DNA from: Squalus acanthias
Taxonomy: Eukaryota
Reading direction: 5' to 3'
Length of the DNA stretch: 64,000 nt
Assembly (NCBI GenBank): GCA_030390025.1
Contig: JASTWF010000418.1
Location: 186,001 to 250,000 of the forward strand
How positions within the stretch are numbered: position 1 is the first letter of the stretch; every line of letters starts with the position of its first letter. The notes beneath the pieces were generated by a model. It saw only the letters and a list, made by a program, of their open reading frames with translations, was not told where the DNA came from and ran no database searches. Made by a program: the position numbers and the translations under genes. Positions 15,501 to 61,680 of this stretch are shown here, in pieces.

Positions 15501-16040
15501 GCAGAGGGCACCCTATATCACCCAAACTATTCACAGCAGCGTCCCCATTGAACACTGTAGACACCAGCAGAGGACGCCCTACATCACTCAAACTAATCCC
15601 AGCAGTGTCCCCATAGAACACTGTAGACACCAGCAGAGGACGCCCTACATCACTCAAACGAATCCCAGCAGTGTCCCCATAGAACACTGTAGACACCAGC
15701 AGAGGGCACCCTCCATCACCCAAACTATTCACAGCAGCGTCCCCATTGAACACTGTAGACACCAGCAGAGGCACTCTACATCACCCAAACTATTCACAGC
15801 AGTGTCCCCACTGAACACTGTAGACACCAGCAGACGGCACCCCATATGACCCAAACTATTCACAGCAGCGTCCCCATTGAACACTGTAGACACCAGCAGA
15901 GGCACTCTACATCACCCAAACTATTCACAGCAGTGTCCCCACTGAACACTGTAGACACCAGCAGACGGCAACCGACATCACCGAAACTATTCACAGCAGT
16001 GGCCCCATTGAACACTGTAGACACCAGCAGAGGGCGCCCT
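6560..16040. repeat. 66-bp satellite array, about 140 units (CACAGCAGTGTCCCCACTGAACACTGTAGACACCAGCAGAGGGCACCCTACATCACCCAAACTATT)
   Basis: Direct inspection; 22-aa periodic ORFs on both strands. Confidence 0.97.
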
Positions 16041-16322
16041 CCAGCACCCAATTCAATCTTTGCACAAAACCTGTGATGGTGCGAGACTTGCCCCCTTCTG
16101 TTCTGCTGGTTAGAGAGACTCGGCTCCTCCCTTTCTCCTGGTCTGAGTCTCGGCCCCTCCCATTCTGCTGGTCTTAGACTCGGCCCCTCTCTTTCTCCTG
16201 GTCAGTGAGACTCGGCCCCTCCCTTTCTGATGGTCAGTGAGACTCGGCCCCTCCCTTTCTGATGGTCAGTAAGACTCTCCCCTCACTTTCTGCTGGTCTG
16301 AGCTGGACATTGAAATCCGAAG

Positions 16323-16408
16323 CTACCTCTTCTGATCCAGCGACGGGATGGTCTCCATTTGAAGTTCACCCTGTGGCCAGAGACTGTTTCTCTGCATTCG
16401 GTAACTGC
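16323..16408 (-). CDS. Terminal cytoplasmic exon [28 protein letters not shown]
   Basis: Very strong acceptor tttttcctcttctcttccctcacctgcag|; phase-1 frame open to TAG at 16325-16323. Confidence 0.75.
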
Positions 16409-40400: not shown

Positions 40401-43400
40401 AGATATAACACTCACAACTAGGGGGATCAAGGGGTATGGCGAGAAAGCAGGAATGGGGTACTGAGCTAGCATGTTCAGCCATGAACGCATTGAATGGCGG
40501 TGCAGGCTCGAAGGACCGAATGGTCTACTCCTGTACCTAGTTTCTATGTTTCTATGTATCTAACCCCGTGCTGTACCTGCCCTGGGAGTGTTTGATGGGA
40601 CAGTGTCGAGGGAGCTTTACTCTGTATCTAACCCGTGCTGTACCTGCCCTGGGAGTGTTTGATGGGACAGTGTAGAGGGAGCTTTACTCTGTATCTAACC
40701 CGTGCTGTACCTGCCCTGGGAGTGTTTGATGGGACAGTGTAGAGGGAGCTTTACTCTGTGTCTAACCCGTGCTGTACCTGCCCTGGGAGTGTTTGATGGG
40801 ACAGTGTGCAGGGAGCTGTACTCTCTATCTAAGGGATGAGGTGTATCTTACCATCATGTTTGCTGAGGGTCTGTGTCAGCGGAGTTGTTGAGGAAAGGTG
40901 TTTGACCAGACAGGTGAAGATCGATCCTGAATCCCATTCCCGGACAGGGACCTTTAACGTGCTGCTGGAACTGTAGGTCCCATTCTCGTGTTGAGTTGTA
41001 TGGCCAGGCTCCGAGGAGAAGGATGTCTGGCGGTTATTGATGAGCCAGGTGAAGGAGATGTTCCTGGGGTGAAATCCGACTGCCTGACACCCCAATGTGG
41101 CCGTCCCGTTAGTGTCCATTTCATCGTAGGTGGGGGGTAGGACGTAGACGCTGGGAACCGTAGGGTATCGGGCTGGAGATCCACCGGAGAGAGAACGGAA
41201 TGAAGGCATTAGTGGGCGGTGAGAGATCAGGCCCACCTTGGAGCCCCCCAGTTAATCGCCCCCCAGACTGGGGGGACAGCGAGATCAGCCCCTCACTCAG
41301 AGCCCCCCAGTTAAACACCCCCCAGACTGGGGGGAACAGCGAGATCAGCCCCTCACTCAGAGCCCCCCAGTTAATCGCCCCCCAGACTGGGGGAACAGCG
41401 AGATCAGCCCCTCACTCAGAGCCCCCCAGTTAATCGCCCCCCAGACTGGGGGGGAACAGCGAGATCAGCCCCTCACTCAGAGCCCCCTAGTTAATCACCC
41501 CCCAGACTGGGGGCAACAGCGAGATCAGCCTCTCACTCAGAGCCCCCCAGTTAATCGCCCCCCAGACTTGGGGCAACAGCGAGATCAGCCCCTCACTCAG
41601 AGCCCCCCAGTTAATCGCCCCCCAGACTGCGGGGAACAGCAAGATCAGCCCCTCACTCAGAGCCCCCCAGTTAATCCCCCCCAGACTGGGGGGAAGAGCG
41701 AGATCACCCCCTCACTCAGAGCCCCCCAGTTAATCGCCCCCCAGATTGGGGTGTACAGTGAGAGCAGCCTGTAGGATAGAGTGTACCTGTAGGATTTACT
41801 AAACATTGTTAAGATTTTGTAACCATTATTAAATAAGTATAATATGTGAAATTCTATGTTAAAAACCTAAAACGCTTATATAAAATGCCAGGCAAGCAAA
41901 GCTTGATGGTAAAATTAAGCCAGCATTATGTTAACTGGGAGAATAGTGCTGAGTTGGTGTAGATTTTCTGTTATATTAAAAACAAGAAGCCAGTGAAGGA
42001 CAAAGCATTAATTAAGTCTCAAAGTAAGACAGAGGGTTTTCAATCCCCAACATCCCTTATCGCTGAAGTTTCAGACCAGTCTAGATAATGGGCTGTGGGA
42101 AAGGCAAAAGACCTCCGTCGTAATTCATGGGAAGTCCGGCTATGTGAAAGATCTCAAACTCAAAGCTCACAGCAGAATAGGGGAGGGAATCATAGACCGT
42201 ACTTGTGAAGGTCAGCATGGTGAGATAGCCCAAGCAGCTGCCAGTTGCTATGTATTTTGAAAGGGAAAAAAAGGTATAAAGGAACAGCTATTGAACACTG
42301 AAAGCAGTGCGAAACCAGAGGTCGAGAAGCTTCAGTCAACAGAACACAGCAAGAGAATAAAGAGACCGCGCCGCAGTCACTCGGAAGCAACGCCAGGGTT
42401 CAATGAACAGACGGCGACTATCTTCTTGTTAAGTATTACTTCTTTATACTGGATGTTTAATGTTTAATAAACCTGTTTTACTGATACACAATATACCTGG
42501 ACCCAGAGTGGTTTGTGTCGTCACGGACAAATTAATTCAGAGCTTTAAAAGCTACAAGACCCACCTCAGAGCCCCCCAGTTAATCGCCCCCCAGACTGGG
42601 GGGAACAGTGAGATCAGCCCCTCACTCGGAGCCCCCAGTTAATCGCCCCCCAGATTGGGGGGAAGTGCGAGATCAGCCCCTCACTTGGAGCCCCCCAGTT
42701 AATGAACCCCCAGATTGGGGGGGAAGAGCGAGATCAGCCCCTCACTCAGAGCCCCCCAGTTAATCAGCCCCCCAGACTGGGGGCATCCCACAAAACCTCC
42801 AACCCCCAATTCTCAAATCCCCAGCATGAATCTCCACCTCAAACCCCCAGCCCAATTCAACCTCCCTAACCCCGACCCCCTCGCTGCCCCCCCGCCCCCC
42901 CACCCAACAACCCCCAGCAGTCCAGACACTCACCTCTGGTCCTGATCTCCTTGACGATGGGCTGGGTCAGCGTCTGGTGTGAGACGACACACTGGTACTT
43001 GTCCACATCCACCCAGTCTCGACCCCTGACCTCCAGCTGACTGACGGTGGTGTACCGATCCGTGGGGTCTCGGGACAGAGGCTGCTCGGTGATTCCCGAC
43101 CTCACTTGTCTTCCGTCCGAGAACCAGGAGATCCGCACACTGGGGGGGTAGAATCCGCTGACTAGGCAGAGCAGGGGGGTGAAACCGTTCTCCGATATCT
43201 CCCCCGGGGGCGGGTAATGAAGCTGGACCGAGGGAGGAGAGGACGATGGCACTGGAACAAGAATCAAGGGGTCAGTCACTGGCCTGAGTGTCTCTGGCCC
43301 AGAATCGAGGGGTCAATCACTGACCTCAGTGTGTCTGGCCTAGAATCGAGGGGTCAGTCACTGACCTCAGTGTGTCTGGCCCAGAATCGAGGGGTCAGTC

Positions 43401-46400
43401 ACTGACCTCAGTGTGTCTGGCCCAGAATCGAGGGGTCATTCACTGGCCCGAGTGTCTCTGGCCCAGAATCGAAAGGTCAATCACTGACCTCAGTGTGTCT
43501 GGCCCAGAATCGAGGGGTCAGTCACTGACCTCAGTGTCTCTGGCCCAGAATCAACAGTGATTGGACAGTGTAGATGGAGCTTTCCTCTGTATCTAACCCG
43601 TGCTGTACCTGCCCTGGGAGTGTTTGATGGGACAGTGTAGAGGGAGCTTTACTCAGTATCTAACCCGTGCTGTACCTGCCTTGGGAGTGTTTGATGGGAC
43701 AATGTAGAGGGAGCTTTACTCTGTATCTAACCCGTGCTATACCTGCCCCGGGAGTGCATGATGGGACAGTGTAGAGGGAGCTTCACTCTGTATCTAACCC
43801 CATGCTGTACCTGCCCTGGGAGTGTTTGATGGGACAGTGTAGAGGGAGCTTTACTCTGTATCTAACCCGTGCTGTACCTGCCCTGGGAGTGTTTGATGGG
43901 ACAGTGTAGAGGGAGCTTTACTCTGTATCTAACGTGTGCTGTACCTGCCCTGGGAGTGTTTGATGGGACAGTGTGGAGGGAGCTGTACTCTCTATCTGAG
44001 GGATGAGGTGTATCTTACCATCATGTTTGCTGAGGGTCTGTGTCAGCGGAGTTGTTGAGGAAAGGTGTTTGACCAGACAGGTGAAGATTGATCCTGAATC
44101 CCATTCCCGGACAGGGACCTTTAACGTGCTGCTGGAACTGTAGGTCCCATTCTCGTGTTGCGTTGTGTGGCCAGGCTCCGAGGAGAAGGATGTCTGGCGG
44201 TTCTGGATGAGCCAGGTGAAGGAGATCTTCCTGGGGTGAAATCCGACTGCCTGACACCCCAATGTGGCCGTCCCGTTAGTGTCCATTTCATCGTAGGTGG
44301 GGGGTAGGACGTAGACGCTGGGAACCGTAGGGTATCTGGCTGGAGATCCACCGGAGAGACAACGGAATGAAGGCATTAGTGGGCGGTGAGAGATCAGGCC
44401 CACCTTGGAGCCCCCCAGTTAATCGCCCCCCAGTTAATCGCCCCCCAGACTGGGGGCAACAGCGAGATCAGCCTCTCACTCAGAGCCCCCCAGTTAATCG
44501 CCCCCCAGACTTGGGGCAACAGCGAGATCAGCCCCTCACTCAGAGCCCCCCAGTTAATCGCCCCCCAGACTGCGGGGAACAGCGAGATCAGCCCCTCACT
44601 CAGAGCCCCCCAGTTAATCCCCCCCAGACTGGGGGGAAGAGCGAGATCAGCCCCTCACTCAGAGCCCCCCAGTTAATCGCCCCCCAGATTGGGGTGTACA
44701 GTGAGAGCAGCCTGTAGGATAGAGTGTACCTGTAGGATTTACTAAACATTGTTAAGATTTTGTAACCATTATTAAATAAGTATAATATGTGAAATTGTAT
44801 GTTAAAAACCTAAAACGCTTATATAAAATGCCAGGCAAGCAAAGCTTGATGGTAAAATTAAGCCAGCATTATGTTAACTGGGAGAATAGTGCTGAGTTGG
44901 TGTAGATTTTCTGTTATATTAAAAACAAGAAGACAGTGAAGGACAAAGCATTAATTAAGTCTCAAAGTAAGACAGAGGGTTTTCAATCCCCAACATCCCT
45001 TATCGCTGAAGTTTCAGACCAGTCTAGATAATGGGCTGTGGGAAAGGCAAAAGACCTCCGTCGTAATTCATGGGAAGTCCGGCTATGTGAAAGTTCTCAT
45101 CCTCAAAGCTCACAGCAGAATAGGGGAGGGAATCATAGACCGTACTTGTGAAGGTCAGCATGGTGAGATAGCCCAAGCAGCTGCCAGTTGCTATGTATTT
45201 TGAAAGGGAAAAAAAGGTATAAAGGAACAGCTATTGAACACTGAAAGCAGTGCGAAACCAGAGGTCGAGAAGCTTCAGTCAACAGAACACAGCAAGAGAA
45301 TAAAGAGACCGCGCCGCAGTCACTCGGAAGCAACGCCAGGGTTCAATGAACAGACGGCGACTATCTTCTTGTTAAGTATTACTTCTTTATACTGGATGTT
45401 TAATGTTTAATAAACCTGTTTTACTGATACACAATATACCTGGACCCAGAGTGGTTTGTGTCGTCACGGACAAATTAATTCAGAGCTTTAAAAGCTACAA
45501 GACCCACCTCAGAGCCCCCCAGTTAATCGCCCCCCAGACTGGGGGGAACAGTGAGATCAGCCCCTCACTCGGAGCCCCCCAGTTAATCGCCCCCCAGATT
45601 GGGGGGAAGTGCGAGATCAGCCCCTCACTCGGAGCCCCCCAGTTAATCAACCCCCAGATTGGGGGGGAAGAGCGAGATCAGCCCCTCACTCAGAGCCCCC
45701 CAGTTAATCAGCCCCCCAGACTGGGGGCATCCCACAAAACCTCCAACCCCCAATTCTCAAATCCCCAGCATAAATCTCCACCTCAAACCCCCCAGCCCAA
45801 TTCAACCTCCCTAACCCCCGACCCCCTCGCTGCCCCCCCCTCCCCCCCAACAACCCCCAGCAGTCCAGACACTCACCTCTGGTCCTGATCTCCTTCACGA
45901 TGGGCTGGGTCAGCGTCTGGTGTGAGACGACACACTGGTACTTGTCCACATCCACCCAGTCTCGACCCCTGACCTCCAGCTGACTGACGATGGTGTACCG
46001 ATCCGCGGGGTCTCGGGACAGAGGCTGCTCGGTGATTCCCGACCGCACTCGTCTTCCGTCCGAGAACCAGGAGATCCGCACACTGGGGGGGTAGAATCCG
46101 CTGACTAGGCAGAGCAGGGGGGTGAAACCGTTCTCCGATATCTCCCCCGGGGGCGGGTAATGAAGCTGGACCGAGGGAGGAGAGGACGATGGCACTGGAA
46201 CAAGAATCAAGGGGTCAGTCACTGGCCCGAGTGTCTCTGGCCCAGAATCGAGGGGTCAGTCACTGGCCCGAGTGTCTCTGGCCCAGAATCGAGGGATTAG
46301 TCACTGACCTCAGTGTGTCTGGTACAGAATCGAGGGGTCAGTCACTGACCTCAGTGTGTCTGGCCCAGATACGACAGTGATTGGACAGTGTAGAGGGAGC

Positions 46401-49400
46401 TTTACTCTGTATCTAACCCCGTGCTGTACCTGCCCTGGGAGTGTTTCATGGGACAGTGTCGAGGGAGCTTTACTCTGTATCTAACCCGTGGTGTACCTGC
46501 CCTGGGAGTGTTTGATGGGACAGTGTCGAGGGAGCTTTACTCTGAATCTAACCCCGTGCTGTACCTGCCCTGGGAGTGTTTGATGGGACAGTGTCGAGGG
46601 AGCTTTACTCTGTATCTAACCCATACTGTACCTGCCCTGGGAGTGTTTGATGGGACAGTGTAGAGGGACCTTTACTCCGTATCTAACCCGTGCTGTACCT
46701 GCCATGGGAGTGTTTGATGGGACAGTGTAGAGGGAGCTTTACTCTGTATCGAACCCCGTGCTGTACCTGCCCTGGGAGTGTTTGATGGGACAGTGGAGAG
46801 GGAGCTTTACTCTGTATCTAACCCGTGCTGTACCTGCCCTGGGAGTGTTTGATGGGACAGTGTAGAGGGACCTTTACTCTGTATCTAAACCGTGCTGTAC
46901 CTGCCTTGGGAGTGTTTGATGGGACAGTGTAGAGGGTTCTTTACTCTGTGTCTAACCTGTGCTGTACCTGCCCTGGGAGTGTTTGATGAGACAGTGTAGA
47001 GGGAGCTTTACTCTGTATCTAACTCGTGCTGTACCTGCCCTGGGAGTGTTTGATGGGACAGTGTAGAGGGGGCTTTACTCTGTATCTAACCCGTGCTGTA
47101 CCTGCCCTGAGAGTGTTTGATGGGACAGTGTAGAGGGAGCTTTACTCTGTATCTAACCCGTGCTGTACCTGCCCTGGGAGTGTTTGATGGGACAGTGTAG
47201 AGGGAGCTTTACTCTGTATCTAACCCCATGCTGTACCTGCCCTGGGAGTGTTTGATGGGCCAGTGTAGAGGGAGCTTTACTCTGTATCTAACGTGTGCTG
47301 TACCTGCCTTGGGAGTGTTTGATGGGACAGTGTAGAGGGAGCTTTACTCTGTATCTAACCCGTGCTATACCTGCCCCGGGAGTGCATGATGGGACAGTGT
47401 AGAGGGAGCTTTACTCTGTATCTAGCCCGTGCTGTACCTGTCCTGGGAGTGTTTGATGGGACAGTGTAGAGGGAGCTTTACTCTGTATCTAACCCGTGCT
47501 GGACCTGCCCTGAGAGTGTTTGATGGGACAGTGTAGAGGGAGCTTTACTCTGTATCTAACCCCGTGCTGTACCTGCCCTGGGAGTGTTTGATGGGACAGT
47601 GTAGAGGGAGCTTTACTCTGTATCTAACCCGTGCTGTACCTGCCCTGGGAGTGTTTGACGGGGCAGTGTAGAGGGAGCTTTACTCTGTATCTAACCCGTG
47701 CTGTACCTGCCCTGGGAGTGTTTGATGGGACAGTGTAGAGGGAGCTTTACTCTGTATCTAACCCGTGCTGTACCTGCCCTGGGAGTGTTTGATGGGACAG
47801 TGTAGAGGGAGCTTTACTCTGTATCTAACCCCGTGCTGTACCTGCCCTGGGAGTGTTTGATGGGACAGTGTAGAGGGAGCTTTAATCTGTATCTAACCCG
47901 TGCTGTACCTGTCCTGGGAGTGTTTGATGGGACAGTGTAGAGGGAGCTTTACTCTGTATCTAACCTGTGCTGTACCTGCCCTGGGAGTGTTTGATGGGAC
48001 AGTGTGCAGGGAGCTGTACTCTCTATCTGAGGGATGAGGTGTATCTTACCGTCATGTTTGCTGAGGGTCTGTGTCAGCGGAGTTGTTGAGGAAAGGTGTT
48101 TGACCAGACAGGTGAAGATCGAGCCTGAATCCCATTCCCGGACAGGGACCTTTAACGTGCTGCTGGAACTGTAGGTCCCATTCTCGTGTTGCGCTGTGTG
48201 GCCAGGCTCCGAGGAGAAGGATGTCTGGCGGTTATTGATGAGCCAGGTGAAGGAGATCTTCCTGGGGTGAAATCCGACTGCCTGACACCCCAATGTGGCC
48301 GTCCCGTTAGTGTCCATTTCATCGTAGGTGGGGGGTAGGACGTAGACGCTGGGAACCGTAGGGTATCGGGCTGGAGATCCACCGGAGAGACAACGGAATG
48401 AAGGCATTAGTGGGCGGTGAGAGATCAGGCCCACCTTGGAGCCCCCCAGTTAATCGCCCCCCAGACTGGGGGGAACAGCGAGATCAGCCCCTCACTCAGA
48501 GCCCCCCAGTTAATCACCCCCCAGACTGGGGGGAACAGTGAGATCAGCCCCTCACTCGGTGCCCCCCAGTTAATCGCCCCCCAGACTGGGGTGAACAGCG
48601 AGATCAGCCCCTCACTCAGAGACCCCCAGTTTACCGGCCCCCCAGTTAATCGCCCCCCAGACTGGGGGGGAAGAGCGAGAGGAGCCTGTAGGATATAGTG
48701 TACCTGTAGGATTTAGTAAACATTGTTAAGATTTTGTAACCATTATTAAGTAAGTATAATATGTGAAATTGTATGTTAAAAACCTAAAACGCCTGTATAA
48801 AATGGCTGGGAAGCAAAGCATGATGGTAAAATTAAGCCAACATTATGTTAACTGGGAGAATAGTGCTGAGTTGGTGTAGATTTTCTGTTATATTAAAAAC
48901 AAGAAGCCAGTGAAGGACAAAGCATTAATTAAGTCTCAAAGTAAGACAAAGGGGTAGAAATTAGTTCGCGCCCCATTTGGGGCGCAAATATTGTCTGGAC
49001 GCAAATATTAGCGCCTGGCGCTAATTATCGGCACTGACTGGAAACTTCACTTTTACCGCCCCGGGAGGTGAGTGGAGTGCTAAATCAGGCGCTGCACACC
49101 TGTCTTAAGGCGCAAAGGCCAAGGAGTGAGGCGCTACCTCAGAGCGCTGGCGAAGCTCATGTAATGTCAGTCAGCAATGGAACACACACACAATGGCACG
49201 GGCCAGTTCTTAAAGGGGATGGTTAATCTTGCTTTCCATCCACATCCTGTTCATTGCAGCCTTGAATCTCGGCCTGGAGAGACTTGCTCTTCAAATGTGC
49301 TGGAAAGAACAATGGAGAGTACCAGGCAAAGAGCTCAGAGTGCAGCTCCCACAATCTCTGCTAAATCGATACAAGGAATGGCAAATCAAAATGAACCTGC

Positions 49401-52400
49401 AAAGTGCTGCTCAGTACCCAAAACTCCTTCACACAACGTTGAATCTCTTCAGAAGTCTCTCCCTCTCTCTCTCAGAATGCGTAGTTCAAAAATGCCACCA
49501 ACAATAAAAGACAGGAAGAGGCCCCCTTTAAATAGCGCCCCCCCCAGCCCCACAGCGATTGATAGCGTTCCAGTCTTCTGGTCGTTGGATGCGCCAGGCG
49601 GTAAGGCAGGGGGCGCCACTCAATTTCCGCTCCGGGGCGCCACAAGGGCGTTGCACCATGGAATGACGTCACAATCTGCGCGCGCAGGTGGTCGCAGCGG
49701 TAAAGTATAGCGCCGCCGCACAATCTCTAGTTAAGTTCCCGAGCGGCGCAAACATCGCTGCGCCCGGGCGTTAGCGGCTTTGCGCCCCATTAGCGCCCTC
49801 TTAAGGCGCTAACGGGAGGCGCAACCAACTGAATTTTTACCCCAAAGGGTTTTCAATACCGAACATCCCTCATCGCTGAAGTTTCAGACCAGTCTAGATA
49901 ATGGGCTGTGGGAAAGGCAAAAGACCTCCGTCTTAATTCATGGGAAGTCCGGCTATGTGCAAGATCTCAAACTCAAAGTTCACAGCAGAATAGGGGAGGG
50001 AATCATAGACCGTACTTGTGAAGGTCCGCATGGTGAGATAGCCCAAGCAGCTGCCAGTTGCTATGTATTTTGAAAGGGAAAAAAAAGGTATAAAGGAACA
50101 GCTATTGAACACTGAAAGCAGTGCGAAACCAGAGGTCGAGAAGCTTCAGTCAACAGAACACATCAAGAGAATAAAGAGACCGCGCCGCAGTCACTCGGAA
50201 GGAACACCAGGGTTCAATGAACAGACGGCGACTATCTTCTTGTTAAGTATTACTTCTTTATACTGGATGTTTAATGTTTAATAAACCTGTTTTACTGATA
50301 CACAATATACCTGGACCTAGAGTGGTTTGTGTCATAGAAACACGGACAAATTAATTCAGAGCTTTAAAAGCTACAAGACCCACCTCAGAGCCCCCCAGTT
50401 AATCACCCCCCAGACTGGGGGGAAGAGCGAGATCAGCCCCTCACTCAGAGCCCCCCAGTTAATCGCCCCCCAAACTGGGGGAAACAGCGAGATCAGCCCC
50501 TCACTCAGAGCCTCCCAGTTAATCACCCCCCAGACTGGGGGGAAGAGTGAGATCAACCCCTCACTCAGAGCCCCCCAGTTAATCAGACCCCAGACTGGGG
50601 GAAACAGCGAGATCAGCCCCTCACTCGGAGCCCCGCAGTTTACCGGCCCCCCAGATTGGGGGGAACAGCGTTGGGGGGGTTTCTGACGTCTGGGTTGTGA
50701 TTCCGCGGGGGCTCATTAACGACAATCGCGGGAACCCGCTGGATTGAAATGGAAGGGGAGTGGGGGGGGGTGGGGGGGGGCCGGGGAGGAGCGCCCCTCG
50801 CGATCTGTTCCCTGGGTCACAAACCTCCCCTCCCCTCCCCCGGTGACTGGGAGCCAAGCCCAGGGGTTAACCCACTAAACCTCCAACCCCCAACTCTCTA
50901 ATCCCAGCACAAATCTCCACCTCAAACCCCCCAGCCCAATTCAACCTCCCTAACCCCCGAACCCTCGCTGCCCCCCCGCCCCCCCCCCAACAACCCCCAG
51001 CAGTCCAGACACTCACCTCTGGTCCTGATCTCCTTGACGATGGGCTGGGTCAGCGTCTGGTGTGAGACGACACACTGGTATTTGTCCACATCCACCCAGT
51101 CTCGACCCCTGACCTCCAGCTGACTGACGGTGGTGTACCGATCCGCGGGGTCTCGGGACAGAGGCTGCTCGGTGATTCCCGACATCACTCGTCTTCCGTC
51201 CGAGAACCAGGAGATCCGCACACTGGGGGGGTAGAATCCGCTGACTAGGCAGAGCAGGGGGGTGAAACCGTTCTCCGATATCTCCCCCGGGGGCGGGTAA
51301 TGAAGCTGGACCGAGGGAGGAGAGGACGATGGCACTGGAACAAGAATCAAGGGGTCAGTCACTGGCCTGAGTGTCTCTGGCCCAGAATCGAGGGGTCAGT
51401 CACTGACCTTAGTGTGTCTGGCCCAGAATCGAGGGGTCAGTCACTGACCTCAGTGTGTCTGGCCCAGAATCGAGGGGTCAGTCACTGACCTCAGTGTGTC
51501 TGGCCCAGAATCGAGGGGTCATTCACTGGCCCGAGTGTCTCTGGCCCAGAATCGAGGGGTCATTCACTGGCCCGAGTGTCTCTGGCCCAGATTCGAAAGG
51601 TCAACCACTGACCTCAGTGTGTCTGGCCCAGAATCGAGGGGTCAGTCACTGACCTCAGTGTCTCTGGCCCAGAATCAACAGTGATTGGACAGTGTAGATG
51701 GAGCTTTCCTCTGTATCTAACCCGTGCTGTACCTGCCCTGGGAGTGTTTGATGGGACAGTGTAGAGGGAGCTTTACTCAGTATCTAACCCGTGCTGTACC
51801 TGCCCTGGGAGTGTTTGATGGGGACAGTGTAGAGGGAGCTTTACTCTGTATCTAACCCATGCTGTACCTGCCCTGGGAGTGTTTGATGGGACAGTGTAGA
51901 GGGAGCTTTACTCTGTATCTAACCCTGTGCTGTACCTGCCCTGGGAGTGTGTGATGGGACAGTGTAGAGGGAGCTTTACTCTGTATCTAACCCGTGCTGT
52001 ACCTGCCTTGGGAGTGTTTGATGGGACAGTGTAGAGGGAGCTTTACTCTGTATCTAACCCGTGCTATACCTGCCCCGGGAGTGCATGATGGGACAGTGTA
52101 GAGGGAGCTTTACTCTGTATCTAACCCCATGCTGTACCTGCCCTGGGAGTGTTTGATGGGACAGTGTAGAGGGAGCTTTACTCTGTATCTAACCCGTGCT
52201 GTACCTGCCCTGGGAGTGTTTGATGGGACAGTATAGAGGGAGCTTTACTCTGTATCTAACCCGTGCTGTACCTGCCCTGGGAGTGTTTGATGGGACAGTG
52301 TGCAGGGAGCTGTACTCTCTATCTAAGGGATGAGGTGTATCTTACCATCATGTTTGCTGAGGGTCTGTGTCAGCGGAGTTGTTGAGGAAAGGTGTTTGAC

Positions 52401-55400
52401 TAGACAGGTGAAGATCGAGCCTGAATCCCATTCCCGGACAGGGACCTTTAACATGCTGCTGGAACTGTAGGTCCCATTCTCGTGTTGCGTTGTGTGGCCA
52501 GGCTCCGAGGAGAAGGATGTCTGGCGGTTATTGATGAGCCAGGTGAAGGAGATCTTCCTGGGGTGAAATCCGACTGCCTGACACCCCAATGTGGCCGTCC
52601 CGTTAGTGTCCATTTCATCGTAGGTGGGGGGTAGGACGTAGACGCTGGGAACCGTAGGGTATCGGGCTGGAGATCCACCGGAGAGACAACGGAATGAAGG
52701 CATTAGTGGGCGGTGAGAGATCAGGCCCACCTTGGAGCCCCCCAGTTAATCGCCCCCCAGTTAATCGCCCCCCAGACTGGGGGGAACAGCGAGATCAGCC
52801 CCTCACTCAGAGCCCCCCAGTTAATCACCCCCCAGACTGGGGGGAACAGTGAGATCAGCCCCTCACTCGGTGCCCCCCAGTTAATCGCCCCCCAGACTGG
52901 GGTGAACAGCGAGATCAGCCCCTCACTCAGAGACCCCCAGTTTACCGGCCCCCCAGTTAATCGCCCCCCAGACTGGGGGGGAAGAGCGAGAGGAGCCTGT
53001 AGGATATAGTGTACCTGTAGGATTTAGTAAACATTGTTAAGATTTTGTAACCATTATTAAGTAAGTATAATATGTGAAATTGTATGTTAAAAACCTAAAA
53101 CGCCTGTATAAAATGGCTGGGAAGCAAAGCATGATGGTAAAATTAAGCCAACATTATGTTAACTGGGAGAATAGTGCTGAGTTGGTGTAGATTTTCTGTT
53201 ATATTAAAAACAAGAAGCCAGTGAAGGACAAAGCATTAATTAAGTCTCAAAGTAAGACAAAGGGGTAGAAATTAGGTCGCGCCCCATTTGGGGCGCAAAT
53301 ATCGTCTGGACGCAAATATTAGCGCCTGGCGCTAATTATCGGCACTGACTGGAAACTTCACTTTTACCGCCCCGGGAGGTGAGTGGAGTGCTAAATCAGG
53401 CGCTGCACACCTGTCTTAAGGCGCAAAGGCCAAGGAGTGAGGCGCTACCTCAGAGCGCTGGCGAAGCTCATGTAATGTCAGTCAGCAATGGAACACACAC
53501 ACAATGGCATGGGCCAGTTCTTAAAGGGGATGGTTAATCTTGCTTTCCATCCACATCCTGTTCATTGCAGCCTTGAATCTCGGCCTGGAGAGACTTGCAC
53601 ATCAAATGGAGAGTACCAGGCAAAGAGCTCAGAGTGCAGCTCCCACAATCTCTGCTAAATCGATACAAGGAATGGCAAATCAAAATGAACCTGCAAAGTG
53701 CTGCTCAGTACCCAAAACTCCTTCACACAACGTTGAATCTCTCCAGAAGTCTCTCCCTCTCTCTCTCAGAATGCGTAGTTCAAAAATGCCACCAACAATA
53801 AAAGACAGGAAGAGGCCCCCTTTAAATAGCGCCCCCCCCAGCCCCACAGCGATTGATAGCGTTCCAGTCTTCTGGTCGTTGGATGCGCCAGGCGGTAAGG
53901 CAGGGGGCGCCACTCAATTTCCGCTCCGGGGCGCCACAAGGGCGTTGCACCATGGAATGACGTCACAATCTGCGCGCGCAGGTGGTCGCAGCGGTAAAGT
54001 TTAGCGCCGCCGCACAATCTCTAGTTAAGTTCCCGAGCAGCGCAAACATCGCTGTGCCCGGGCGTTAGCGGCTTTGCGCCCCATTAGCGCCCTCTTAAGG
54101 CGCTAACGGGAGGCGCAACCAACTGAATTTTTACCCCAAAGGGTTTTCAATACCGAACATCCCTCATCGCTGAAGTTTCAGACCAGTCTAGATAATGGGC
54201 TGTGGGAAAGGCAAAAGACCTCCGTCTTAATTCATGGGAAGTCCGGCTATGTGCAAGATCTCAAACTCAAAGTTCACAGCAGAATAGGGGAGGGAATCAT
54301 AGACCGTACTTGTGAAGGTCAGCATGGTGAGATAGCCCAAGCAGCTGCCAGTTGCTATGTATTTTGAAAGGGAAAAAAAAGGTATAAAGGAACAGCTATT
54401 GAACACTGAAAGCAGTGCGAAACCAGAGGTCGAGAAGCTTCAGTCAACAGAACACAGCAAGAGAATAAAGAGACCGCGCCGCAGTCACTCGGAAGGAACG
54501 CCAGGGTTCAATGAACAGACGGTGACTATCTTCTTGTTAAGTATTACTTCTTTATACTGGATGTTTAATAAACCTGTTTTACTGATACACAATATACCTG
54601 GACCCAGAGTGGTTTGTGTCATAGAAACACGGACAAATTAATTCAGAGCTTTAAAAGCTACAAGACCCACCTCAGAGCCCCCCAGTTAATCACCCCCCAG
54701 ACTGGGGGGAAGAGCGAGATCAGCCCCTCACTCAGAGCCCCCCAGTTAATCGCCCCCCAAACTGGGGGAAACGGCGAGATCAGCCCCTCACTCAGAGCCT
54801 CCCAGTTAATCACCCCCCAGACTGGGGGGAAGAGTGAGATCAGCCCCTCACTCAGAGCCTCCCAGTTAATCAGACCCCAGACTGGGGGGAAGAGCGAGAT
54901 CAGCCCCTCACTCGGAGCCCCGCAGTTTACCGGCCCCCCAGATTGGGGGGAACAGCGTTGGGGGGGTTTCTGACGTCTGGGTTGTGATTCCGCGGGGGCT
55001 CATTAACGACAATCGCGGGAACCCGCTGGATTGAAATGGAAGGGGAGTGGGGGGGGGTGGGGGGGGGCCCCGGGGAGGAGCGCCCCTCGCGATCTGTTCC
55101 CCGGGTCACAAACCTCCCCTCCCCTCCCCCGGTGACTGGGAGCCAAGCCCAGGGGTTAACCCACTAAACCTCCAACCCCCAACTCTCTAATCCCAGCACA
55201 AATCTCCACCTCAAACCCCCCAGCCCAATTCAACCTCCCTAACCCCCGAACCCTCGCTGCCCCCCCGCCCCCCCCCCAACAACCCCCAGCAGTCCAGACA
55301 CTCACCTCTGGTCCTGATCTCCTTGACGATCGGCTGGGTCAGCGTCTGGTGTGAGACGACACACTGGTACTTGTCCACATCCACCCAGTCTCGACCCCTG

Positions 55401-58400
55401 ACCTCCAGCTGACTGACGGTGGTGTACCGAGCCGCGGGGTCTCGGGACAGAGGCTGCTCGGTGATTCCCGACCTCACTCGTCTTCCGTCCGAGAACCAGG
55501 AGATCCGCACACTGGGGGGGTAGAATCCGCTGACTAGGCAGAGCAGGGGGGTGAAACCGTTCTCCGATATCTCCCCCGGGGGCGGGTAATGAAGCTGGAC
55601 CGAGGGAGGAGAGGACGATGGCACTGGAACAAGAATCAAGGGGTCAGTCACTGGCCCGAGTGTCTCTGGCCCAGAATCGAGGGGTCAGTCACTGACCTCA
55701 GTGTGTCTGGCCCAGAATCGAGGGGTCAATCACTGACCTCAGTGTGTCTGGTACAGAATCGAGGGGTCATTCTCTGACCTCTGATCTCACAATCACATAT
55801 ATCACAAGAACAGTGTGCGTGACTAGAGGTCTATAAAGATCGTGAGCTTTTCTTTTAGCAGAGAGGGACAAGGACGAAAGGTTCGACGATGGTTAGGTCT
55901 CTACCCACAGGATAAACGGTGTTAATTGTGTTTACTTCTCTGCTTGGTTGAGCACATTAAAAGGTTTAAGTTGAAACCATATTTGGCATCAGATTCGAAT
56001 TCTCTGACACAGGGCAATGGGACTAAGGAGGGAGCTCGGTCAGAGAGAGGGCACGGGGGCGATGGGCTAAATTTCCTCGTCTGCTGTAAAATTCTCTCAC
56101 TTTATGATCCTTGAGTCACAGATATAAACAACAAACTCTAGGATACTTGGAATTCCCACTACAGGTTCTTCCCCTGTGGGACTCCTCACTCCCAAAACTG
56201 TTCGAATCTTCACCTGAAACTGTGGGGACTCCTTGACCTCAAAACTGTAGGATTCTTCACCCCCCAAACTGTGGGACTCCTCTTCCCCAAACTGTGGGAC
56301 TCTTCATCCCCCAAACTGTGGGACTCCTCTACCATAAGACTGTAGGATTCTTCACCTCCAAATTGTGGGACTCCTCATCTCCGAAACTCTGGTACTCCTC
56401 ACCTCCCAAACTCTGAGACTCCTCACCTTCAAACCAATGGAATCCTCATCTCCAATTATTGGGACTCCTCACTCCCAAAATTATTGGTTCTCTCACCTCA
56501 AAAGTGTCGGTCTCCATGACCACCAAACTGTTCAACTCTTCACCCCCAAACTGTGAGTCTCCTCACCCCCAAAACTCTGGGACTCCTTACCCCCAAACTG
56601 TGGGACACCTTCCTTCCAAACTCTGGGACTCCTTACCCACAAACTGTGGGACTCCTCACCCCCAAACTGTGGGACTCCTCACCCCCCAAACTCTGGGACG
56701 CGGCACCCCCAAAACCCTGGGACTCCTCACCACCAAATTGTGGGACTCCTCACTTCCAAACTTTGGGACTCCTCAACCCCGCAAACTGTGGGGACTCCTC
56801 ACCACCAAACTGTAGGACTCCTCAACACCAAACTGTGGGACTGCTCACTTCCAACCTCTGGGAGTCCTCGCCCCCAAACTGTGCAACCTTTCACCCCCAA
56901 ACTGTTGGACTCCTCACCCCCAAATTCTGTGACCCCTCATCTCTCTAAATTGTCCCTTTGTCCTAAAATCAGCTGGTCTTGGCGTAACTCCAAACCACCG
57001 TTCCCTGAACTGCCTCATCTGATGTCCTCCACCCTCCAAGCTTGGCTGTGGGCCATCGACTGCCCGTTCCCATTCCACCCCTCCCTTGCCCCCAAACGGG
57101 TTTCGGACGAGCTCCCCTACCGGCCTCGACCTTCAGTGTAGATCCACAGCCGCACCAATCTGTCGTGTTCTTGTCTCCCAGGTGGTCTGTCATTTGGCAG
57201 AAGTACCTGGTGGAATCTTGCTGCGTGGCATTAGCGATCCGCAGAGACATCTGCTTTCGGCCAAAGTTCTTCTCGGCCACGTAACGGTGAGCTTTCCCAG
57301 CCATGAAGGTTGGGACCTGTGACTTGGGGCTCCAGTACACCAGCTGCTTCATGGCCCCAGTGCCAGGGGGGACGTAACCCCAGATCAAGTACCGGTCGTC
57401 TGTCTTGCGGGAGAATCGGCACTCCATCGTGACCGACTCGCCCTCCCGGACGCTCATTAATGTGGACGAGAATCGGAAGTTCCCACCGCAGGAGGTGAGC
57501 CCTGAAAATAGAGAGAGAGACACAACTCGTGAATCCTCCCACCAAAGATAACTCAGGAAATGTAGGACGGTCGCAGCTAAGGCTGCACTTTGACATTGGT
57601 CAAGGTAAAGCTTGGTACAGAACCTTGGTTAGACCACACTTGGAGCAATGTGCCCAGTCCCGGTCTCCACATACCTTGGATAGACCACACTTGGAGCACT
57701 GTGCACAGTCCCGGTCTCCACATACCTTGGATAGACCACACTTGGAGCACTGTGCACAGTCCCGGTCTCCATATACCTTGGATAGACCACACTTGGAGCA
57801 CTGTGCACAGTCCCGGTCTCCACATACCTTGGATAGACCACACTTGGAGCACTGTGCACAGTCCTGGTCTCCACATACCTTGGATAGACCACACTTGGAG
57901 CAATGTGCACAGTCCCGGTCTCCATATACCTTGGATAGATCACACTTGGAGCAATGTGCCCAGTCCCGGTCTCCATATACCTTGGATAGACCACACTTGG
58001 AGCACTGTGCACAGTTCTGGTCTCCATATACCTTGGTTAGACCACACTTGGAGCAATGTGCCCAGTCCTGGTCTCCATATACCTCGGTTAGACCACACTT
58101 GAAGCAATGTGCCCAGTCCCGGTCTCCACATACCTTGGATAGACCACACTTGGAGCAATGTGCCCAGTCCTGGTCTCCATATACCTTGGTTAGACCACAC
58201 TTGGAGCAATGTGCCCAGTCCCGGTCTCCACATACCTTGGTTAGACCACACTTGGAGCACTGTGCACAGTCCTGGTCTCCATATACCTTGGTTAGACCAC
58301 ACTTGGAGCACTGTGCACAGTCCTGGTCTCCACATACCTCGGTTAGACCACACTTGGAGCACTGTGCCCAGTCCTAATCTCCATATACCTGGGTTAGACC

Positions 58401-61400: not shown

Positions 61401-61567
61401 ATAGCAGCTTATGCTGGTAGGGTGAGATGAAGAGGGGAGGGAGAAGGCAGCATGGGCCACTTGGGCCGAATGGCCTTTTCCTGCTCGATAAACTCAATGT
61501 AGTTCTCGATGTAAACCTTACCAGCCAGGAGGAAGATGTGGACAGAGAGTGAAATCACCGACTTCAT
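16323..61567 (-). CDS. Multi-exon non-rearranging antigen-receptor-like IgSF membrane protein: L-VJ-(C1)x15-TM-cyto, about 1817 aa (1825 with the 24-nt micro-exon)
   Basis: Exons joined by hand, in transcription order: 61567-61522, 57501-57121, 55623-55306, 52666-52346, 51334-51017, 48370-48050, 46194-45877, 44339-44019, 43251-42934, 41172-40852, 33248-32931, 31878-31558, 28272-27955, 26601-26281, 24880-24557, 22198-21878, 20760-20437, 17130-16993, (16925-16902), 16408-16323. All junctions are GT-AG phase 1, internal exon lengths are multiples of 3, and there are no internal stops. Confidence 0.88.
16490..16870. repeat. 28-bp intronic minisatellite GATCCACCTGTCTGTGTACCTGGGGTCT
   Basis: About 13 units. 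Confidence 0.93.
16902..16925 (-). CDS. Putative cytoplasmic micro-exon (V)RLQSGNY
   Basis: Strong donor ACA|gtgagt; tandem TAGCAG acceptors give 27 or 24 nt, both frame-preserving; weak pyrimidine tract and only a 64-67-nt upstream intron. Confidence 0.45.
16993..17130 (-). CDS. Transmembrane exon [46 protein letters not shown]
   Basis: ttccccacag| acceptor, G|gtagg donor, 138 nt, phase 1-1; about 23-residue hydrophobic stretch followed by a basic stop-transfer RQKRK. This frame is not in the ORF track and was translated by hand. Confidence 0.87.
17452..19480 (+). mobile_element. Degraded CR1 fragment interrupted by a MITE
   Basis: [41 protein letters not shown]1 3' UTR; internal tandem duplication of about 99 bp. 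Confidence 0.85.
18039..18910. mobile_element. PIF/Harbinger-like non-autonomous element
   Basis: TIRs GGGGGAGAAATTC / GAATTTCTCGCCC, 3-bp TSD CTC/CTT; homologous throughout to 48951-49843 and 53262-54137. Confidence 0.75.
19935..20057 (+). mobile_element. Short LINE 3' end with A-tail (duplicate at about 24055-24178)
   Basis: Reverse complement matches the 3' end of the LINE at 59214-59340. Confidence 0.75.
20437..20760 (-). CDS. Ig C1-set exon type E, copy 2 (membrane-proximal)
   Basis: 324 nt, same splice sites as E1 (alternative donor at 20422); SPEICTL gains a Cys; the ORF continues to TAA at 20147 if unspliced. Confidence 0.88.
20930..21775. repeat. 35-bp minisatellite CTCTCCCATCGAAGCCCATCCCTCTAGTCCCCTAA (D2-E2 intron)
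   Basis: Direct inspection. Confidence 0.95.
21878..22198 (-). CDS. Ig C1-set exon type D, copy 2
   Basis: 321 nt, near-identical to D copy 1, same splice sites. Confidence 0.9.
22330..23150 (+). mobile_element. CR1 3' fragment with 3 tandem copies of a segment of about 99 bp
   Basis: [33 protein letters not shown] repeated; CR1 3' UTR. Confidence 0.85.
23232..23945 (+). mobile_element. Penelope-like element 3' fragment (GIY-YIG C-terminus, pseudo-LTR, inverted partial pLTR)
   Basis: [38 protein letters not shown]; inverted repeat of about 113 bp at 23232-23345 / 23654-23768; AATAAA at about 23899. Confidence 0.8.
23856..23893 (+). ncRNA. Minimal type I hammerhead ribozyme
   Basis: tcac-CTGACGA-a-GGAGC(agca)GCTCC-GAAA-GC-TT-gtga: catalytic core, stem II, palindromic AGCT mini stem III and stem I tcac/gtga. 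Confidence 0.75.
24557..24880 (-). CDS. Ig C1-set exon type E, copy 1
   Basis: 324 nt, atttcag|...G|gtgaag (in-frame alternative donor at 24542); [27 protein letters not shown]. Confidence 0.88.
25050..26175. repeat. 35-bp minisatellite (D1-E1 intron)
   Basis: Same unit as 20930-21775. Confidence 0.95.
26281..26601 (-). CDS. Ig C1-set exon type D, copy 1
   Basis: 321 nt, cccctcag|...G|gtgagt; [27 protein letters not shown]; extra Cys in ALPCL. Confidence 0.9.
26780..27295 (-). mobile_element. CR1 3' fragment
   Basis: [19 protein letters not shown] motif and CR1 3' UTR. Confidence 0.85.
27296..27898 (-). repeat. 42-bp tandem array derived from CR1 ORF2 ([17 protein letters not shown])
   Basis: Periodic CR1 peptide contiguous with the CR1 3' fragment. 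Confidence 0.9.
27955..28272 (-). CDS. Ig C1-set exon type C (single copy)
   Basis: 318 nt, ctttgcag|...G|gtcagt; [35 protein letters not shown]. Confidence 0.9.
28330..28722 (-). mobile_element. L2-clade LINE 3' fragment
   Basis: [32 protein letters not shown] is a typical L2 ORF2 C-terminus. Confidence 0.7.
28895..31535. repeat. 67-bp satellite GGGAGTGTTTGATGGGACAGTGTAGAGGGAGCTTTACTCTGTATCTAACCCGTGCTGTACCTGCCCT, interrupted by a CR1
   Basis: Direct inspection; the same family occurs at about 33680-34589, 37880-38202, 40558-40830, 43560-44000, 46380-48030 and 51685-52325. Confidence 0.95.
29172..30680 (-). mobile_element. Young 5'-truncated CR1 LINE
   Basis: 470-aa RT ORF, (TTCTATGT)n tail; near-identical to 36356-37875. 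Confidence 0.95.
31558..31878 (-). CDS. Ig C1-set exon type B, copy 5
   Basis: 321 nt, same splice sites (GTAALG, PRNIS variants). Confidence 0.9.
31947..32590. repeat. 60-bp minisatellite GAGATCAGCCCCTCACTCAGAGCCCCCCAGTTAATCGCCCCCCAGACTGGGGGGAACAGC
   Basis: Present in every A-B intron (also about 41240-42780, 44405-45725, 48440-50660, 52735-54950). Confidence 0.95.
32931..33248 (-). CDS. Ig C1-set exon type A, copy 5
   Basis: 318 nt, same splice sites. Confidence 0.9.
33260..33680. repeat. 41-bp minisatellite GGCCCAGAATCGAGGGGTCAGTCACTGACCTCAGTGTGTCT
   Basis: Abuts the acceptor of every type-A exon (also about 43260-43555, 46203-46372, 51343-51680, 55632-55780). Confidence 0.93.
34590..37879 (+). 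mobile_element. Long CR1 LINE: ORF1 C-terminus (esterase-like) plus ORF2 endonuclease/RT, disabled
   Basis: DGLHL motif in ORF1; APE motifs LNARS, GITETW, GGGVA, GDFN, SDH; RT motifs; in-frame TAA at 35270-72 and a frameshift near 37120; CR1 tail. Confidence 0.95.
38203..40557 (+). mobile_element. Young 5'-truncated CR1 LINE with an uninterrupted 752-aa ORF2 portion
   Basis: SDH..RT..RPHL motifs, (TTCTATGT)n tail. Confidence 0.95.
40852..41172 (-). CDS. Ig C1-set exon type B, copy 4
   Basis: 321 nt, same splice sites (PRNIS variant adds an N-glycosylation sequon). Confidence 0.9.
41770..42556 (+). mobile_element. Solo LTR-like element, 787 bp (unit 4)
   Basis: Termini TGTAG...CTACA, AATAAA about 90 bp from the right end; absent from the unit-5 intron. 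Confidence 0.7.
42934..43251 (-). CDS. Ig C1-set exon type A, copy 4
   Basis: 318 nt, same splice sites (GRQVRS, DPTDRY variants). Confidence 0.9.
44019..44339 (-). CDS. Ig C1-set exon type B, copy 3
   Basis: 321 nt, same splice sites (LIQNRQ variant). Confidence 0.9.
44713..45499 (+). mobile_element. Solo LTR-like element (unit 3)
   Basis: Copy of 41770-42556 at the same insertion site. Confidence 0.7.
45877..46194 (-). CDS. Ig C1-set exon type A, copy 3
   Basis: 318 nt, same splice sites (YTIVS variant). Confidence 0.9.
48050..48370 (-). CDS. Ig C1-set exon type B, copy 2
   Basis: 321 nt, same splice sites (HTAQH variant). Confidence 0.9.
48687..50375 (+). mobile_element. Solo LTR-like element (unit 2) with nested MITE
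   Basis: Same LTR, split at GACAAA|GGGTTTT. Confidence 0.7.
48951..49843. mobile_element. PIF/Harbinger-like MITE nested in the LTR
   Basis: TIRs GGGGTAGAAATT / AATTTTTACCCC, AAA TSD, empty site visible in units 3 and 4. Confidence 0.8.
51017..51334 (-). CDS. Ig C1-set exon type A, copy 2
   Basis: 318 nt, near-identical to copy 1 (RRVMSG variant), same splice sites. Confidence 0.9.
52346..52666 (-). CDS. Ig C1-set exon type B, copy 1
   Basis: 321 nt, ctccag|...G|gtaag; [39 protein letters not shown]. Confidence 0.9.
52998..54662 (+). mobile_element. Solo LTR-like element (unit 1) with nested MITE
   Basis: Copy of the unit 2 composite. Confidence 0.7.
53262..54137. mobile_element. PIF/Harbinger-like MITE nested in the LTR
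   Basis: Same TIRs, TSD and site as 48951-49843. Confidence 0.8.
55306..55623 (-). CDS. Ig C1-set exon type A, copy 1
   Basis: 318 nt, ttccag|...G|gtgag; [29 protein letters not shown]. Confidence 0.9.
56170..56940. repeat. Degenerate repeat of about 24 bp (CCCCAAACTGTGGGACTCCTCA core) in the V-C1 intron
   Basis: Direct inspection. Confidence 0.9.
57121..57501 (-). CDS. V-set Ig domain exon with in-exon J-like segment (VJ type)
   Basis: ctattttcag| acceptor and G|gtaggg donor. Motifs: [39 protein letters not shown] and [11 protein letters not shown] (GxG J motif). Confidence 0.92.
57620..60730 (+). repeat. 42-bp CR1-derived tandem array, interrupted by a LINE
   Basis: [17 protein letters not shown] periodicity; runs into a CR1 3' end. 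Confidence 0.92.
59214..60290 (-). mobile_element. LINE (CR1/L2-group) RT 3' fragment
   Basis: [29 protein letters not shown] at 59356-60327. Confidence 0.9.
60731..61495 (+). mobile_element. Two degraded CR1 3' ends in tandem
   Basis: [10 protein letters not shown].. and [19 protein letters not shown], each followed by a CR1 3' UTR. Confidence 0.8.
61522..61567 (-). CDS. Leader (signal peptide) exon [15 protein letters not shown](G)
   Basis: ATG in AACATGA context, hydrophobic core, 46 nt ending G|gtaag (phase 1); in frame with the V exon. This is a typical Ig/TCR split leader. Confidence 0.85.
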
Positions 61568-61680
61568 GTTGGGAGGAGAGCTGACACGACACATCCTTCT
61601 CAACGGCTGGAGTCCGATCTTCTGGTCCTCGCACACACTCCCTTTCAGAGCGAGTCAGCCTCTGTCCTTCCTCTCCATTC

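Follow-up and report, generated by a model that had tools for sequence, protein, structure and literature searches.

Layout of the gene around the VJ exon

The window, that is, the whole 64,000-nucleotide stretch of Squalus acanthias DNA analyzed here, carries on its minus strand a gene composed of a leader exon, a VJ exon, five Ca-Cb pairs of constant-type exons, Cx, two Cc-Cd pairs, a transmembrane (TM) exon and a likely tail exon. With the VJ and 15 open C exons it encodes 16 Ig domains and, by summed exon lengths and with all exons used, a product of ~1826 aa. Its features are as follows.

61522..61594, minus: leader exon (split leader, phase 1); 56% match to the Heptranchias P0002 leader, ATG and GT donor read
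57121..57501, minus: VJ exon assigned to UrIg2; sequence and fold match to 9DMX, splice to Ca in 2/4 runs
55306..55623, minus: Ca1, C1-type domain, orthologue of 9DMX C1, without Cys182; domain match to 9DMX C1
52346..52666, minus: Cb1, C2-type domain, no counterpart in the 9DMX construct; exon mapping and domain tree
51017..51334, minus: Ca2; Ca exon match
48050..48370, minus: Cb2; Cb exon match
45877..46194, minus: Ca3; Ca exon match
44019..44339, minus: Cb3; Cb exon match
42934..43251, minus: Ca4; Ca exon match
40852..41172, minus: Cb4; Cb exon match
32931..33248, minus: Ca5; Ca exon match
31558..31878, minus: Cb5; Cb exon match
27955..28272, minus: Cx, second C1-type domain, grouping with the domain repeated in rays; exon mapping and domain tree
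26281..26601, minus: Cc1, orthologue of 9DMX C2, one extra Cys; domain match to 9DMX C2
24557..24880, minus: Cd1, C3-type domain; exon mapping and domain tree
21878..22198, minus: Cc2; Cc exon match
20437..20760, minus: Cd2, one extra Cys; Cd exon match
16993..17130, minus: transmembrane exon; 50% match to the P0002 TM
16323..16408, minus: likely cytoplasmic exon to the stop codon; weak P0002 tail match (E=0.03), AG acceptor in phase

The segment 57121-57501 is exactly one exon of 381 nt with an AG acceptor, a GT donor, phase 1-1 and an open frame, and its translation is a V-set domain (Pfam E=2e-12). An earlier note, made from the sequence alone, had claimed that V and J are contiguous in one exon, and this is borne out by the open exon with its AG/GT ends: the frame runs unbroken from the F-strand YFC, via the NTT loop, into [10 protein letters not shown], the exon end reading YFC...[14 protein letters not shown]. 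The degenerate FR2 motif that it described was read identically in translation, as W-G-Y-V-P-P-G. The proposed Cys at the J-Phe/Trp position and a second one inside GxG were confirmed in register by a HMMER alignment with scFv 7urv, in which the two extra cysteines align, in order, with the Trp and the Gln of WGQG. For the loop, the reported NTT holds as an N-x-T sequon in all seven genomic copies described below, with the refinement that NTT itself occurs in only two of them and NAT in the other five.

The hydrophobic span of the TM exon contains one Cys and is free of acidic residues, Lys and Arg. Its center reads GLIVY, and the IgM-like LLIF core given in PMC12227049 was not seen as such. 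The putative cytoplasmic tail comprises 27 codons after the split codon, with one Tyr and no ITAM or ITIM consensus. In a tree of 37 C domains, Ca and Cx were placed in the C1 class (97/96), Cb clustered with domain 2 of Heptranchias and with the first C domain in rays (97/95), and Cx grouped more weakly with the ray repeat (89/86). Heptranchias P0002 itself is laid out as V-Ca-Cb-Cx-(Cc-Cd)x2-TM. This domain tree suggests an ancestral UrIg2 with a V and five C domains, V-Ca-Cb-Cx-Cc-Cd, of which the nurse shark would have kept Ca-Cc-Cd and the rays Cb-Cx. The introns (6563-16051, 57622-59201, 61823-64000 and others) are filled by LINE-like pieces and long minisatellites with units of 66, 51 and 16 bp, and units of 67, 60 and 41 bp recur with each Ca-Cb pair; these elements may drive the unequal crossing-over behind changes in repeat number.

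Transcript evidence was drawn from four runs of assembled contigs, not reads, presumed to represent RNA and unlabelled as to tissue, and only intron-skipping joints were counted. V was joined to Ca exactly across the intron in contigs of 2/4 runs (two studies; presumed RNA), and in one of the four (presumed RNA) Ca was followed by 320 other nt and by Ca again, which matches the expected spliced Ca-Cb-Ca repeat. Contigs of runs X2 and X3 contain a V variant that has both the codon 63-66 changes seen in genomic copies L003-L005 and the change at codon 107 seen in L006; it is not among the seven genomic copies and could be an allele, another copy or a sequence from a related species. UrIg2 expression is described in PMC12227049 as highest in gill and liver, not in lymphoid tissue.

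Identity of the VJ exon and its extra cysteines

The exon almost certainly encodes the VJ domain of UrIg2, an Ig-like gene of elasmobranchs that does not rearrange. In sequence terms, the resemblance is not a matter of chance, the top PDB match being 9DMX ('UrIg2 V-C1-C2-C3'; E=3e-56, 64-66% identity) and the next standing at E=2e-10. A fold search with an AlphaFold V model (mean pLDDT 84) also ranked 9DMX first (E=1e-13, TM 0.81-0.82), and a search of the ESM Atlas returned generic Ig clusters only. A 27-row V tree set the exon apart from UrIg (31-38% V identity to the UrIg rows) and placed it in a 100/99 clade with P0004 and P0013 (XP_041031358.1 and XP_048449493.1), both named UrIg2 in PMC12227049. 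The nearest database protein was Heptranchias P0002, with a V identity of 80%, and the exon also resembles the lanternshark row in PMC12227049.

In the mature numbering of 9DMX (minus four leader residues), the canonical cysteines are 23 and 97 and the extra cysteines 112 and 114, the latter pair in exact register with 9DMX and present in 7/7 copies. Sequons lie at Asn107, in the CDR3-equivalent loop, and at Asn86. The conservation check proposed in the earlier note came out in its favor, since both the CxC and the N-x-T sequon are kept in all seven genomic copies and in the same six of six database UrIg2 proteins. The leader is split as in UrIg2, with a 73 nt leader exon in phase 1 and a V exon that opens with the rest of the leader. 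Prior published work on UrIg2 explains the CGCG as well as the sequon and the decayed FR2 motif.

It is very improbable that the exon is a germline-joined RAG product, like the germline-joined IgL, IgM1gj and IgNAR of sharks, VNAR-like and with intra-domain disulfides. Germline-joined Ig genes do exist in sharks (PMC12227049) and the exon has a J-like end, but its place in the tree is among the UrIg genes, separate from the 10 Ig/TCR-like outgroup rows (95/96). A germline-joined IgL was rejected. In addition, loop length is identical across all UrIg2 rows, the nurse-shark orthologue bonds between chains, and there is no split relative among the 7 near-identical matches. The earlier idea of a fixed, single-exon VJ thereby gained support, as V and J were not split in any orthologue or copy looked at. 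A scan without a positive control detected no RSS-like site within 1.5 kb of 10/10 V exons and, in the 64 kb window, one weak site far from V.

In type I IgNAR V domains, a Cys likewise occupies the J-Phe/Trp position and the extra Cys bonds within the domain. The analogy to type I VNAR that had been drawn is poor for that reason, and VNAR-like intra-domain bonding was rejected because the nurse-shark orthologue bonds inter-chain. In PMC12227049, the nurse-shark crystal structure has inter-chain disulfides A112-B112 and A114-B114 between two V domains that meet through their A and G strands, not through the GFCC' face, in a parallel cis dimer for which no trans contact is described in the sections consulted. 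By analogy, the UrIg2 product would very probably be locked as a homodimer by Cys112-Cys112' and Cys114-Cys114', and the FR2 pairing motif would have decayed because the V-V contact uses the A and G strands, leaving the GFCC' face free. Of the two states offered before, "unpaired or disulfide-linked", the nurse-shark bonds fit the second and not the first. A predicted V homodimer, folded without an alignment, scored 0.02 against a mark of 0.32. A G-strand glycosylation site is mentioned in the Fig. S2 legend of PMC12227049, and the crystal structure has glycans modelled at 144, 253 and 328 and none at Asn107, with residues 104-109 missing in chain A.

The inter-chain Cys182 of 9DMX C1 is absent from the Ca exons; it is absent also from great-white UrIg2 P0004 and is therefore not family-defining. 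The Cc exons (26281-26601 and 21878-22198) have a third Cys, unpaired and with no equivalent in 9DMX C2 or Heptranchias, and this residue could add inter-chain bonds, standing in for the missing Cys182.

The seven-copy array and its proposed role

Our search of the same genome with the V exon scored 150 of 310 candidates and gave 48 matches. Seven full-length V exons of 94-100% identity lie on contig C3243 (416,886 bp), which was then mapped whole and on which only UrIg2 exons were found with the Ig queries used. Each of the seven V exons has a leader exon upstream, and the copies follow the general layout leader-VJ-(Ca-Cb)n-Cx-(Cc-Cd)m-TM, with n = 1-6. Along the contig, the Ca-Cb repeats number at least 4 (cut by the contig end), 6, 1, 5 (window), 2, 2 and at least 1 (cut). 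The five complete copies all have a TM exon, and they contain 2, 2, 2, 1 and 1 Cc-Cd pairs and 17, 7, 15 (window), 7 and 7 C domains. Scaling from 335 A per ten domains (PMC12227049), stalks of 7-17 C domains would reach ~27-60 nm if linear.

Table S1 of PMC12227049 gives a single model apiece for catshark and epaulette shark, two models of one gene for the great white, and for the stingray three models that we take as two genes. Seven tandem copies and a (Ca-Cb)n layout are absent from the accessible text of PMC12227049, and the locus is a variant form of the published UrIg2. An orphan (Cc-Cd)x2-TM piece lies at C3243:59,456-70,073 (L016-L018); in the incomplete sequence of that part of the contig, neither V nor Ca, Cb or Cx turned up before the next gene. 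Linkage to the IgH/TCR-alpha-delta/PSMB5 complex is a trait of UrIg2. A proteasome-family search for PSMB linkage gave 21 matches, none on C3243, C3 or C336.

No stop codon was found in any of the 70 exons tested, a set that left out the incomplete Cc exons at 65080, 69777 and 280132, and AG/GT ends were present in 41/41 Ca and Cb exons. Across the five C types pN/pS was 0.21-0.52, against 1.34 for V, and differences among Ca exons were mostly silent (pN/pS 0.21, p<0.005). Segregating nonsynonymous to synonymous changes stood at 17:4 in V vs 36:39 in the pooled C exons (Fisher p=0.012). The C exons are under purifying selection and V is not; the V ratio did not differ from neutral (p=0.79), and relaxation fits its pattern as well as diversifying selection does. 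A pseudogene was rejected on the absence of stops and the purifying selection on C. The CxC and N-x-T are invariant across the array. The variants at codons 64/66 and 104 occur in all four combinations among the copies, which points to gene conversion between them.

It is improbable, though less so than a germline-joined origin, that the array and its repeat numbers are assembly artefacts or dying duplicates around an exon that is itself real. The region is rich in tandem repeats, the V exons of L004 and L005 are identical, L003 equals the window over 180 nt of intron, and the contig is short, unplaced and cuts two copies at its ends, so that haplotype duplication could inflate the count. Yet 6/7 V, 18/21 Ca and 19/20 Cb exons are distinct in sequence, the silent Ca differences and stop-free exons are unlike read errors or decay, the junction of Ca, a Cb length and Ca again was seen in an independent run, and two haplotypes would at most double the count.

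Taken together, we put at roughly 0.8 the probability that the exon is the fixed VJ tip of one of seven UrIg2 copies whose product is likely a membrane-anchored homodimer and an inherited capture or adhesion receptor, not a lymphocyte antigen receptor; the capture or adhesion role, taken separately, is only somewhat favored. As the gene reads, its single-exon VJ, 15 open C exons and TM exon would yield a long-stalked membrane protein, with a covalent head-to-head V dimer transferred from the nurse-shark orthologue. The GFCC' face, free of VH/VL-type pairing, and the CDR loops would form the likely ligand surface and may bind a fixed ligand class, while Asn107, if glycosylated, would shield or stiffen the CDR3-equivalent loop. 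Without RAG diversification, variety would come from gene copies, with V changing faster than C and being shuffled by conversion, and V tips on stalks of 7-17 C domains would let the copies widen both specificity and reach. A short tail without ITAM or ITIM and a TM without a charged pairing residue would point to tethering or capture, not to signaling by itself.

The same gene and dimer might instead serve homophilic cell-cell adhesion or spacing in a protocadherin-like manner, with repeats setting membrane distance and V differences governing self-matching, a reading we consider unlikely but worth weighing. Against it, the wide differences in copy number and layout between species are more typical of immune recognition genes. 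The stalk length that varies among copies and the lack of a signaling motif agree with adhesion, as do the homogenized C repeats and non-lymphoid expression (PMC12227049); the parallel cis arrangement of the crystal dimer speaks against it. PMC12227049 itself suggests innate protection as a role for UrIg and, in the case of UrIg2, homophilic adhesion. Under the capture-receptor reading, seven copies with unequal stalks likely amount to a small inherited cell-surface receptor set in Squalus acanthias.

A third UrIg branch and comparison with known systems

The V search also picked up three VJ exons (42-50%, among 150 scored of 310 candidates) on contig C3, which is 208 Mb long. At C3:132,089,232-132,126,900 (L050, L051, L053, L054) lies a divergent gene pair, VJ-C1-C2-C3 on the plus strand and VJ-C1-C3 on the minus strand, both with a single-exon VJ bearing CxC, 2-3 C domains and a TM-like exon. 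In the minus-strand gene the TM is open and the tail contains S-T-Y-E-N-V, a motif echoed in P0012 that we take to match the ITIM consensus. The plus-strand gene shows a one-base frameshift in its TM exon (L054:6047-6191) in the assembly, which could reflect decay, a secreted form or a mistake in assembly; a tyrosine is also lost from the tail of this gene. A decayed copy lies 26 Mb off, at C3:158,838,300-158,845,800 (L059, L060), with a V lacking the F-strand Cys, C2 and C3 with deletions, and no C1 found at this 158.8 Mb locus. The V-to-C1 splice of the branch was seen in 2/4 runs (presumed RNA).

Orthologue-like proteins with automatic names are present in Mustelus, two species of Scyliorhinus, Chiloscyllium and Rhincodon, and in two of these sharks their locus tags are adjacent. 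In the V-only tree, the third-branch V domains sat at the base of the family on short branches without forming a single clade, and a forced clade was not rejected (p-AU 0.32); in the C-domain tree, C1 (97/93), with two subtypes, and C3 (100/99) formed their own clades. Monophyly of the branch thus rests on these C clades and not on the V tree. Its V rows have CxC in 7/7, the sequon in 0/7, and 31-48% V identity to UrIg2. A scan of 290 of 729 unmasked ORFs in 510 kb against Pfam gave 8 matches, 6 of them transposon or reverse-transcriptase pieces. Neighbors of the gene pair are a two-pore K channel exon at 132.18 Mb, PFDN1 at 132.21 Mb, a PUR gene at 132.55 Mb and a neuregulin gene at 133.45 Mb; we take the PFDN1/PUR/neuregulin neighborhood to correspond to human 5q31, a block that lies in neither the MHC nor the chromosome-14 complex.

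Searches for bony-fish relatives, weak as evidence of absence, gave none that convinced: P0151 was discarded for want of a V domain, its sequence resembling the C chain of an Ig heavy chain. A search with P0005 for longer proteins gave one match and missed relatives known from another search. Rather doubtfully, and as our own presumption, the third branch may be the shark counterpart of bony-vertebrate PRARP. A bichir protein, P0049 (Polypterus XP_039598561.1, automatically named syg-2-like), has tandem V domains with J-like G-x-G-T ends and is a candidate non-rearranging multi-VJ receptor. Our literature search, thin for subscription papers, found no description of the third branch, and its accessions are not in the available supplements of PMC12227049; the branch is apparently unnamed so far and conserved in at least five shark genera.

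UrIg and UrIg2 are leading candidates for relatives of the gene that a RAG transposon split into antibodies and T-cell receptors, and the present array suggests that a non-rearranging relative of antigen receptors can diversify in the germline through stalk length, gene conversion and the number of copies. Recognition before RAG may plausibly have looked like this. With a third branch at a third genomic site, the scenario of two paralogues and two rounds of duplication would need revision. At about even odds, we propose that the UrIg family is a three-branch receptor system and not two relics, in which UrIg2 would comprise, in this shark, at least seven receptors diversified in the germline, their V tips recombining and set on 27-60 nm stalks, and the third branch a conserved membrane pair with a tyrosine-motif tail, sited away from the MHC and the antigen-receptor complex alike, whose V, closest to the root, would be an equally good model for the RAG-invaded gene.

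Among known systems, the window gene is most like UrIg2 (PDB 9DMX; Flajnik et al. 2025, Sci Adv, PMC12227049), with which it shares the single-exon VJ, split leader, CxC at 112/114, G-strand sequon and TM exon, as well as multiple C1-set domains with homogenized two-exon repeats, here a different pair than the nurse shark's. In the window the main repeat is Ca-Cb (C1-C2), present one to six times across the array, whereas PMC12227049 calls the first three C domains of the nurse shark unique and has C2-C3 repeated; two further domain types (Cb and Cx) are present here and the C1 Cys182 is not. The seven tandem copies also contrast with the one or two genes per species in table S1 of PMC12227049. 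The third branch resembles UrIg2 in its single-exon VJ with WGY-x-P and CxC, its C1/C2/C3-class domains and its TM exon, but differs in a shorter CDR3-equivalent loop without a sequon, 2-3 C domains and a tyrosine-bearing tail.

UrIg, in the MHC class III region, likewise combines a non-rearranging VJ with C1-set domains in a disulfide-linked homodimer (Flajnik et al. 2023, J Immunol, as cited in PMC12227049 and PMC10751288). It keeps the second Cys of CxC and lacks the first Cys and the sequon. According to the same sources, UrIg is secreted, with three C domains and ~80% V identity between species, as against a TM, 15 C domains and 31-38% identity to UrIg for the window gene. The UrIg-type copy of the same genome lies on contig C336 (V exon 36%, among 150 scored of 310 candidates) and matches the UrIg row in PMC12227049; V, C1 and C2 exons were located at C336:67,989-76,716 (L010, L063, L064), and no C3 exon in the stretches searched to the contig end.

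Rearranging Ig, TCR and IgNAR genes have separate V and J segments flanked by RSSs, and neither was seen for the UrIg2 exon. Type I IgNAR V is similar in being free of VH/VL-type pairing, but it rearranges and hypermutates, and 9DMX, not VNAR, is the best sequence and fold match to the VJ exon. Contig C3311 (0.05-2.15 Mb) holds 36 V-set exons of 30-37% identity, which break off ahead of the J-like part and are probably an array of rearranging V segments of TCR or Ig type. Joined-VJ receptors include NKp30/NCR3, CD8, NITR, SIRP, CD79 and PRARP (PMC11599192), none of which was a close match in sequence searches, and the window gene differs from them in its long C1-set stalk.
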